Assembly (NCBI RefSeq): GCF_003334815.1
Contig: NZ_QOWO01000021.1
Source: Escherichia coli
GTDB taxonomy: Bacteria > Pseudomonadota > Gammaproteobacteria > Enterobacterales > Enterobacteriaceae
Length of the DNA: 64,000 nt
Reading direction: 5' to 3' (one strand)
Under the pieces are notes generated by a model, which had not been told where the DNA came from, searched no databases, and was given only the letters and a program-made list of their open reading frames with translations. The translations under genes and the position numbers were made by a program. Shown here in pieces: positions 3,098 to 3,960 of this stretch (position 1 is the first letter of the stretch; each line of letters begins with the position of its first letter).

Positions 3098-3748
3098 TTG
3101 CCCGTACTCACGCTTGATCGCAGGACGATCCCGGTTTCGTTCAGTACGCTGGGGAACGCCCTGAGCCACCGTTTTATCTTCGGCCCGTTGACGGAGACTA
3201 CGCACAGCTCCTCGGCGCAGCCGTACGGTTCGTTGTTAACGTCATCAGCCACGCTGACGGAAAAATTTGTTAATGCCGGGCTGAGCTATGGGGCTAATGG
3301 TGCGGTACAAATTGGTACGGGAAATATCGGTGATAAGTTCGATTATCTCAGTTTCATGATGTCAGGCTTGACTGGCGTAGGTACAGCCGGGAAAGGATAT
3401 TACGCTAACCAGTTGTTGGGTGCCGGTAGCGCTTACATGAGCAGCCAGATTGAAGGCCAGGACATTACCGCATCAGTAGTGGGTAGCATGGCTGGTACAG
3501 GTCTGGGCTATAATATTGGTGCTTCAATTACTAATAAGTTTGAATCGCAATACATAAAAAATCAGTTGGGAATGGATGCCAGTAAAAATGCCTTAAAATA
3601 CTCTGAATCGTCTTTTGGTCCGGGGTATTTATTTAAAGGTGGCGAAATGAGACCATACCCGGGAATAGCTGGCGGTTTTATAGGTTCTGGTGCTTCAGAG
3701 TTGGGTAGTTCTGTTGTTCAAGAAAAAACAAAGGGAGTTAACAAATGA
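3098..3748 (+). CDS. Glycine-zipper-rich putative membrane-active toxin (no VENN motif)
   Basis: TTG-initiated 216-aa ORF with repeated GxxxG-like stretches (GTGNIGD, GLTGVGTAGKG, GSMAGTGLGYNIGA, GIAGGFIGSGA); its stop overlaps the start of the next small ORF. Confidence 0.35.
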   Translation: MPVLTLDRRTIPVSFSTLGNALSHRFIFGPLTETTHSSSAQPYGSLLTSSATLTEKFVNAGLSYGANGAVQIGTGNIGDKFDYLSFMMSGLTGVGTAGKGYYANQLLGAGSAYMSSQIEGQDITASVVGSMAGTGLGYNIGASITNKFESQYIKNQLGMDASKNALKYSESSFGPGYLFKGGEMRPYPGIAGGFIGSGASELGSSVVQEKTKGVNK

Positions 3749-3960
3749 AGCATCCCTTTATTTTTTTTACTCATTCTGATTTTAGTTTATTCAGCTGCAA
3801 GTGCATTAGCTTTTATACTAGTCGTTTGGCTTGTTTCTACACATCCATTATCAATGTTGGAAATAGTAAAATATGGAGAGTTAGGGATTTTAGTTGGAGC
3901 ATGGGGGGGGCTGGCATTTGGTTTTTATACTGGCTAAATTCCAGAAAAAGTAACAAATAA
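3745..3960 (+). CDS. Small hydrophobic protein, putative immunity partner of the glycine-zipper ORF
   Basis: 71-aa ORF with ATGA start/stop overlap with the upstream ORF; hydrophobic, Cys-rich N-terminal half. Confidence 0.35.
   Translation: MKHPFIFFTHSDFSLFSCKCISFYTSRLACFYTSIINVGNSKIWRVRDFSWSMGGAGIWFLYWLNSRKSNK

Follow-up and report, generated by a model that had tools for sequence, protein, structure and literature searches.

Does a pair of overlapping open reading frames (ORFs) in a bacterial toxin array encode a membrane toxin with its protective partner, or is it the relic of such a pair? The ORFs lie on contig NZ_QOWO01000021.1 of Escherichia coli assembly GCF_003334815.1, within a 64,000-nucleotide stretch of DNA that we refer to as the window. 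An earlier note on this DNA had described a 216-residue ORF rich in GxxxG-type repeats with an overlapping, hydrophobic 71-residue partner, and both ORFs were read where it had placed them on the plus strand, the first from a TTG start (3098-3748) and the second at 3745-3960, overlapping through ATGA at 3745-3748. [quoted passage not shown] Our analysis indicates that 3227-3960 is very probably a degenerate orphan cdiA-CT/cdiI module of a type 10 CDI ionophore, whose intact lineage carries a YciB-type entry domain, and that neither of its genes is likely to be functional.

The source of the toxin sequence was sought by megablast against 5,426 complete E. coli genomes, where the locus was matched as a whole stretch in 5 genomes and in pieces in 126. 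On plasmid A of E. coli M11, a full-length cdiA (3338 residues) ends in 173 codons that match positions 3227-3748, with 4 substitutions in 173 residues of the CdiA C-terminus (98% identical), and a 71-codon ORF comes next in M11, again overlapping by 4 nt. A three-way DNA alignment of the window, M11 and an orphan of strain A19 showed similarity starting abruptly at 3227, where the protein reads GSLLTSSATLTEKF, with unrelated sequence upstream. Glycine content was 18.5% in residues 44-216 and 4.7% in residues 1-43. Judged by the alignment, only residues 44-216 of the 216-residue ORF are toxin sequence, and we annotate 3227-3748 on the plus strand as a 5'-truncated cdiA-CT of 173 codons plus stop. 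Relative to the position aligned with P88 of EC93, the residue from which the EC93 ionophore domain was transplanted experimentally (primer CH6270; PMC11630599), the fragment begins 5-6 residues earlier, so that the rearrangement cut almost exactly at the boundary between the entry and ionophore domains and left a complete ionophore domain.

Intact relatives of the fragment, comprising M11 and five loci from public assemblies, carry VENN 303 residues before the stop, followed by an N-terminal domain of about 130 residues, and the full-length CdiA proteins recovered among the relatives are 3231, 3236 and 3338 residues long. A C-terminal position behind VENN and an entry domain was observed in the near-identical relatives L001 and L019-L023 and not in the window, where the module is without the CdiA body, VENN and the entry domain. 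The suggestion that the toxin had lost its VENN handle is thus upheld, and the loss goes further than had been supposed, with the whole membrane-entry domain gone as well. In the intact relatives this entry domain was recognisable: residues 10-160 of the M11 CT matched the N-domain of the EC869 CdiA-CT (PDB 4G6U, 4G6U_A) with an E value of 5e-15, and a Cys pair is kept in the match (CRKAGGDC / CRKSGGNC). The TA271/EC869-like entry domain of DNase toxins uses the receptor YciB and defines the group 4 ionophores (PMC11630599). The group 4 block in the appendix of that study lists E. coli CdiA proteins of 3231 to 3338 residues that are 28-30% identical to the EC93 CT at a coverage of about 0.51 (PMC11630599), and the lengths and BLAST statistics of the recovered proteins were consistent with this block. 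On entry-domain homology, lengths and BLAST statistics the intact relatives are best assigned to group 4; the entry domain that defines the group is present in them and absent from the window.

Domain databases said little about the toxin. Pfam, NCBIfam and PADLOC held no model for the glycine-rich domain, NCBIfam and PADLOC returned nothing for cdiI, and Pfam gave only a weak CdiA_helical match on the full M11 CT, located in the entry domain. These empty searches are explained by the type 10 family carrying no database annotation (Table 2 of PMC11630599). Halvorsen et al. (2024) described a large CDI ionophore toxin family of great diversity, related to the EC93 CdiA-CT, in which a variable N-terminal entry domain hijacks the inner-membrane proteins AcrB, SecY, YciB, PuuP/PlaP or DtpA/B, a C-terminal ionophore domain is predicted to form five helices with a glycine zipper as the sole common sequence motif, and CdiI proteins of 72-100 residues with two transmembrane (TM) segments contact helices 1, 4 and 5 (PMC11630599). 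The DiBAC4(3) and competition assays of that study, on the depolarisation of target cells and its neutralisation by the cognate CdiI, were run for group representatives (PMC11630599).

Several lines of comparison place the fragment in this family. BLASTP of the M11-type CT against the EC93 CT, which was taken with its cdiI (cdiA1-CT + cdiI) from plasmid pCP127, gave 31% identity over 119 residues (E 3e-7), in an alignment whose first residues are those of the WG...G motif with which the ionophore domain opens. A profile hidden Markov model (HMM) built from 15 members with EC93 excluded reached residues 95-189 of the EC93 CT at 40.8 bits. With the window domain as query, an exhaustive phmmer search covering 1.8 billion representative proteins produced 39 matches, and the weaker ones (P0054, P0056, P0058, P0060) matched the EC93 CT at E values of 1e-9 to 1e-14, bridging the two. 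The zipper GSMAGTGLGYNIG (3482-3520, plus strand; residues 129-141 of the 216-residue ORF, G129-SMA-G133-TGL-G137-YNI-G141) aligns through GSMAGTGLG with GNAIGTALG of EC93 (G168/G172/G176), and our 19-sequence alignment (A3) shows no exception at G133 and G137 and near-invariance at G129. Since BLASTP, the EC93-free HMM, the bridging proteins and the aligned zipper agree, membership of the ionophore domain in the CT-EC93 family of type 10 alpha-helical ionophores is well supported at the level of homology. This agrees with the membrane-inserting origin first proposed for the ORF, as the EC93 ionophore family depolarises membranes, and argues against the proposal of a different polymorphic-toxin family, as the sequence is a bona fide CdiA-CT of a published CDI ionophore family (PMC11630599).

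The GxxxG repeats that had drawn attention to the ORF stood up in part. Their number, 6, equals the expectation in composition shuffles (5.65 +/- 1.96), and we dropped GxxxG enrichment as evidence; the informative feature is the contiguous family zipper G129-x3-G133-x3-G137-x3-G141. An AlphaFold2 model from the 19-sequence alignment was of low confidence (mean pLDDT 53, pTM 0.43) and placed helices at 10-30, 40-53, 58-76, 80-114 and 147-170 together with a hairpin, the latter forming an insertion of about 30 residues, predicted as a beta-hairpin, between helices 4 and 5. In one of the bridging proteins, P0060, the ORF does not stop after the EC93-like ionophore domain but goes on to a hydrophobic tail resembling an immunity protein (KKMKKINLLVLIKLIILSNIFMIFLDIF); the alternatives are a natural fusion of toxin and immunity protein and a read-through produced by gene calling.

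The small ORF had been taken for the partner of the toxin, and it does derive from the cognate immunity gene cdiI, but its description as hydrophobic did not hold. The intact M11 partner, with tracts of seven T and nine G (T7/G9), reads MKHPFIFLLILILVYSAASALAFILVVWLVSTHPLSMLEIVKYGELGILVGAWGGAGIWFLYWLNSRKSNK and has 71 residues with two hydrophobic segments, a C-terminal tail that is basic and a grand average of hydropathy (GRAVY) of 1.03; homologues of Kluyvera (72 residues) and Proteus (67 residues), found 3' of related toxins, have the same architecture and C-terminal frame. The window ORF has a GRAVY of 0.06, and no 19-residue window within it reaches 1.6, leaving no TM-like segment. Two homopolymers account for the difference. 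A T8 tract at 3761-3768 on the plus strand (T7 in the intact cdiI) introduces a +1 frameshift that puts codons 8-54 (47 codons) out of frame, and a G8 tract at 3903-3910 on the same strand (G9 in the intact cdiI, G7 in strain A19) introduces a -1 frameshift that regains the original terminal frame, with the ORF kept open at 71 codons. The gene for a two-TM hydrophobic CdiI is thus present at 3745-3960 on the plus strand, and its translation in the window is not such a protein. As read, the two frameshifts destroy the two-TM hairpin, and the product is not the immunity protein; we annotate the gene as a cdiI pseudogene, and the small ORF is a frameshift artefact of a two-TM CdiI. With the entry domain lost and the partner frameshifted, the pair is most likely inactive.

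A survey of cdiI alleles at 23 loci related tract lengths to the state of the adjoining toxin. The T7/G9 allele was observed only beside VENN-bearing CTs (6/6 loci), and the A19 orphan, which has kept VENN, carries T7/G7. Truncated copies were all G8, with T7 in 5 loci and T8 in 11 loci and the window. The T7/G8 product has 63 residues and keeps TM1 and most of TM2, with the end of TM2 lost. Exact-sequence look-ups returned 36 contigs for T7G9, 74 for T7G8, 40 for T8G8 and 12 for T7G7. The distribution suggests as the likely order of events a change from G9 to G8 in the orphan lineage, followed by T7 to T8 in the sub-lineage of the window. With T8, the frame of cdiI that encodes the TM segments is also the frame of the toxin ORF, with the TGA stop alone between them; stop-codon read-through from the toxin into cdiI was considered and set aside, as nothing supports it and the frame match was treated as coincidence.

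One alternative, which we regard as improbable, holds that cdiI still works and is possibly phase-variable: if RNA polymerase, the ribosome or DNA polymerase slipped at the T8 and G8 tracts, part of the population would regain the two-TM product and be protected against neighbours with M11-type ionophores. The existence of four natural tract alleles (T7G9, T7G8, T7G7, T8G8) fits such a scheme, as do the abundance of T7G8, the commonest of them with most of its hairpin retained, the good Shine-Dalgarno sequence of cdiI and a second ionophore immunity gene in the array with a G8-G11 tract. However, T8/G8 is stable in at least 11 assemblies of the window lineage, which argues for an inherited inactivating mutation rather than rapid switching, and the in-frame allele was found in no truncated orphan among the loci surveyed. 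A tract of 8 nt is also short for efficient transcriptional slippage. We give similarly little credence to the broader idea that the T7/8 and G7/8/9 tracts here and the G8-G11 tract of that second gene, which resembles cdiI-o10, are contingency switches, with the 'pseudogene' being a phase-variable immunity gene in its OFF state; if this were true, immunity to the membrane ionophores of neighbours would be toggled on and off in subpopulations.

The second gene is an 88-residue ORF at 82-348 resembling EC869 cdiI-o10, which gives immunity to a SecY-dependent ionophore of group 2, and its 5' end (MKLINPLKINK) and the sequence after its stop (CGATAAAAAATAG) match primers CH2362 and CH2363 (PMC11630599). 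Its poly-G tract at about 277-285 is G9 in the window, with the C-terminus out of frame; in near-identical arrays of other assemblies the tract was G8 (in frame, 90 residues), G9, G10 or G11 (in frame, 91 residues). This tract may be a hypervariable ON/OFF homopolymer switch or may reflect assembly noise. Salmonella enterica contig ABTRDM010000006.1 (L011 4850-5150) carries a further cdiI homologue 3' of an orphan toxin of the same type, with a G8 tract at the equivalent glycine-rich position of TM2 and a frameshift there. The GG(G)-coding tract is a recurrent frameshift hotspot in this immunity family.

Both changes in cdiI are single-base homopolymer differences, the classic type of sequencing or assembly error, and some carriers are long-read assemblies, which raises the question of whether the genome really holds an intact or a T7G8 cdiI. 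We consider this very unlikely. The identical T8/G8 combination was observed in many independent assemblies from various projects and platforms, including Logan short-read assemblies, and also in strain 52F4, although identity at its locus is no higher than 98.7%. Because T8/G8 recurs across independent sources that include short-read assemblies, it is a real inherited allele and no one-off sequencing error.

The 5' part of the 216-residue ORF had been suspected of being non-coding over roughly its first 50 residues, and this was confirmed for residues 1-43. Over 3069-3232 the DNA shares 69-74% identity with genes that other E. coli have annotated as SymE-family toxins, and a 58-residue ORF on the minus strand (3076-3252) is 44% identical over 36 residues to an intact SymE-family ORF elsewhere in the window (6074-6328). 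Homology was limited to the C-terminal 36-50 residues or so, with no full-length SymE-like ORF at 3076-3252, and NCBIfam gave no match for the minus-strand remnant. The 5' half of the remnant is replaced by the ionophore fragment, with the junction at about 3222-3227. On the similarity of both the DNA and the minus-strand ORF to SymE-family (type I toxin) genes, the first 43 codons of the 216-residue ORF (3098-3226) are a spurious 5' extension that reads the antisense strand of a symE pseudogene, of which the C-terminal half alone remains.

The remnant has a wider distribution of its own. It travels as one unit with a CPCC-family immunity gene (together 2868-3232). Of the 67 E. coli records that matched, 54 contain the remnant at 95-100% identity, and about 26 of these copies are on plasmids. 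A full-length cdiA of strain ZYB62 has the CPCC gene directly after it, and this position suggests that the CPCC gene encodes the CdiI of that toxin.

Expression signals for the toxin ORF were also sought. A consensus scan found no sigma-70-like promoter on the plus strand at 2600-4200, and a scan for Shine-Dalgarno sequences found none before any in-frame ATG, GTG or TTG of the toxin ORF. The immunity gene retains a good one: a Shine-Dalgarno-like AAAGGGAG at 3730-3737 on the plus strand, read from the sequence and found in the scan, lies inside the end of the toxin ORF, and its position together with the ATGA overlap points to translational coupling of cdiI to the toxin. Toxicity in the family requires the membrane receptor of the entry domain even on cytosolic expression, and in addition a precisely processed N-terminus (PMC11630599), so the fragment would probably be inert even if it were made.

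These observations bear on the literal interpretation of the pair as a functional stand-alone membrane toxin with a protective small protein, similar to a bacteriocin or toxin-antitoxin system and with the 216-residue ORF as read. The ORF is long and open, it overlaps through ATGA a partner with a good Shine-Dalgarno sequence, and its ionophore domain is complete. Nevertheless, its codons 1-43 are symE antisense with neither a promoter nor a Shine-Dalgarno sequence, the entry domain is absent although the family needs a receptor and a processed N-terminus (PMC11630599), and the TM helices of the partner are out of frame, making this interpretation very unlikely. The chance that another glycine-zipper or pore-forming family (Tse4/Ntox25-like beta-barrel ionophores, or colicin or microcin pore formers) was inserted into the array is practically negligible, for although the domain has no Pfam, NCBIfam or PADLOC match, the same sequence ends full-length CdiA proteins and is homologous to the EC93 CdiA-CT, its predicted secondary structure is helical with no beta-barrel in the low-confidence AlphaFold2 model (pLDDT 53), and type 10 has no database annotation that the searches could have found (PMC11630599).

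Some observations weigh against a degenerate type 10 module as the answer. The ionophore domain is complete and only 4 residues from functional copies, and its production from an internal start is conceivable if there is a cryptic transcript, such as one reading through from immunity genes upstream; the inactivity of the locus is itself judged from sequence. The homopolymer lengths in the window are those of the assembled sequence. The five-helix-bundle fold lacks independent confirmation, the model having a pLDDT of 53, and the accessions of the M11 CdiA/CdiI and of the cluster members matched none in the supplements of PMC11630599, leaving the assignment of the intact relatives to group 4 without an accession match.

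The degenerate-module reading can be set out as a sequence of steps. In an intact system, as the literature describes it, CdiA delivers its C-terminal region into the periplasm of a neighbour, where the entry domain via YciB inserts the five-helix glycine-zipper domain into the membrane and the potential is dissipated, while in the producer a CdiI hairpin of about 71 residues with two TM segments binds and neutralises the ionophore domain in the membrane. A rearrangement joined the ionophore domain, almost exactly at its boundary with the entry domain, to the symE-family remnant, with the loss of VENN and the entry domain. In cdiI, the +1 shift in the T tract and the -1 shift in the G tract leave both TM helices mistranslated. 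The toxin fragment, with no CdiA display, no entry domain and no evident expression signals, would be non-functional, the immunity product would be nonsense, and the module would persist as a passive scar among the other toxin pseudogenes of the orphan array.

Comparison with described systems gives a similar picture. Examples of type 10 group 4 toxins are the CdiA-CTs of E. coli 1512290008, VREC0495 and B088 (Halvorsen et al. 2024, PMC11630599). Like them, the window copy has the glycine zipper, the 4-nt overlap with a two-TM cdiI of about 71 residues and no Pfam annotation, and its ionophore domain is 98% identical to those of full-length CdiA proteins (M11 plasmid A; L019-L022) with VENN and the EC869/TA271-type entry domain; unlike them, it is without VENN, entry domain and CdiA body, and its cdiI is frameshifted. 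The cdiI begins MKHPFIF... here and MKKHLLL... in the VREC0495 representative (from a primer), which indicates a different cognate subgroup. With EC93 CdiA-CT/CdiI, the founding, AcrB-dependent CDI ionophore of group 1, the module shares the homologous ionophore domain, the aligned zipper, the toxin stop overlapping the cdiI start (ATGA) and a small two-TM immunity protein (79 residues in EC93), whereas EC93 is intact and active, has an entry domain of the AcrB type and lacks the insertion of about 30 residues between helices 4 and 5. Toxins of the Ntox25/Tse4 type, one of which forms an orphan in the same array (1168-1949), also act between bacteria, depolarise membranes, are rich in glycine and are paired with immunity proteins that are small and hydrophobic, yet they show no sequence similarity to the window domain, which is predicted to be helical, and are themselves predicted beta-barrels (PMC11630599).

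Orphan cdiA-CT/cdiI modules downstream of cdi loci, such as the o1-o11 array of EC869, were reportedly described by Poole et al. in 2011. In a typical orphan, VENN survives together with part of the upstream pretoxin sequence, permitting recombination onto cdiA, and cdiI is intact. The window module resembles them in being a promoterless pair of toxin end and immunity gene in a tandem array with adjoining IS elements, and differs in having neither VENN/pretoxin sequence nor an intact cdiI. With the array context present, the VENN homology absent and cdiI frameshifted, it is best classed, on its sequence features, as a degenerate orphan.

Its 3' boundary is marked by the VENN codons (GTTGAGAATAAT) at 3970-3981 on the plus strand, which open the next orphan, a tRNase CT of the EC536 type; translation past the cdiI stop reads RLIVENNYLSVSE, and in EC556 the counterpart of the stretch from 3970 onward is labelled a DUF6862/CdiA-CT pseudogene by the annotation pipeline PGAP. 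The array as a whole (1-5315) contained five orphan modules. The first is the o10-type ionophore/cdiI module represented by the cdiI ORF at 82-348, and the second pairs the Ntox25 CT (1168-1949) with a 151-residue immunity gene (1954-2409). Between these two, at 619-1140, lies a gene for a DUF2569 membrane protein (173 residues) with an N-terminal Cys-rich motif. The third comprises a truncated toxin end (about 2581-2883) and the CPCC-family immunity gene (2883-3068), the fourth is the group 4 ionophore remnant (3227-3960), and the fifth holds the EC536-type tRNase CT (3970-4941, with an internal stop after 4797) and its CdiI (4950-5315). At the EC556 locus, which is 99.9% identical, the flanking orphan toxins are frameshifted, N-terminally truncated or interrupted by an internal stop according to PGAP; in all, 5 of 5 toxin remnants are inactivated and 3 of 5 immunity genes look intact, as is common. 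No cdiBA was found upstream of the EC556 locus, only IS66 genes.

Downstream of the array stand an IS200 transposase gene (IS200/IS605 tnpA, 5443-5952), the intact SymE-family gene on the minus strand (6074-6328) and fragments of type I restriction genes (6563-8110; the hsdR C-terminus and an N-terminal part of hsdM), and from these symE and hsd neighbours the array sits in the hsd/symE 'immigration control' region. The same ionophore fragment or a shorter piece was present as a spacer in 126 genomes. In many other strains the symE remnant and ionophore fragment are cut again at the position equivalent to 3479 of the window (two loci examined), where the conserved pretoxin region of a next orphan, ending in VENN, begins. 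These recurrent cut copies suggest that the fragment behaves as a passively inherited spacer.

The toxin family concerned, with its mechanism, receptors and immunity proteins, is already known from its description in 2024, and CDI loci are known to contain orphan modules in decay, so that the module carries little weight as a discovery. Its significance lies in what it shows about the annotation of such arrays. A family without a Pfam or NCBIfam model leaves its domains labelled 'hypothetical protein', long ORFs in these arrays may join genuine coding sequence to the antisense reading of a remnant next to it, and an ORF of the right length can conceal compensating frameshifts.

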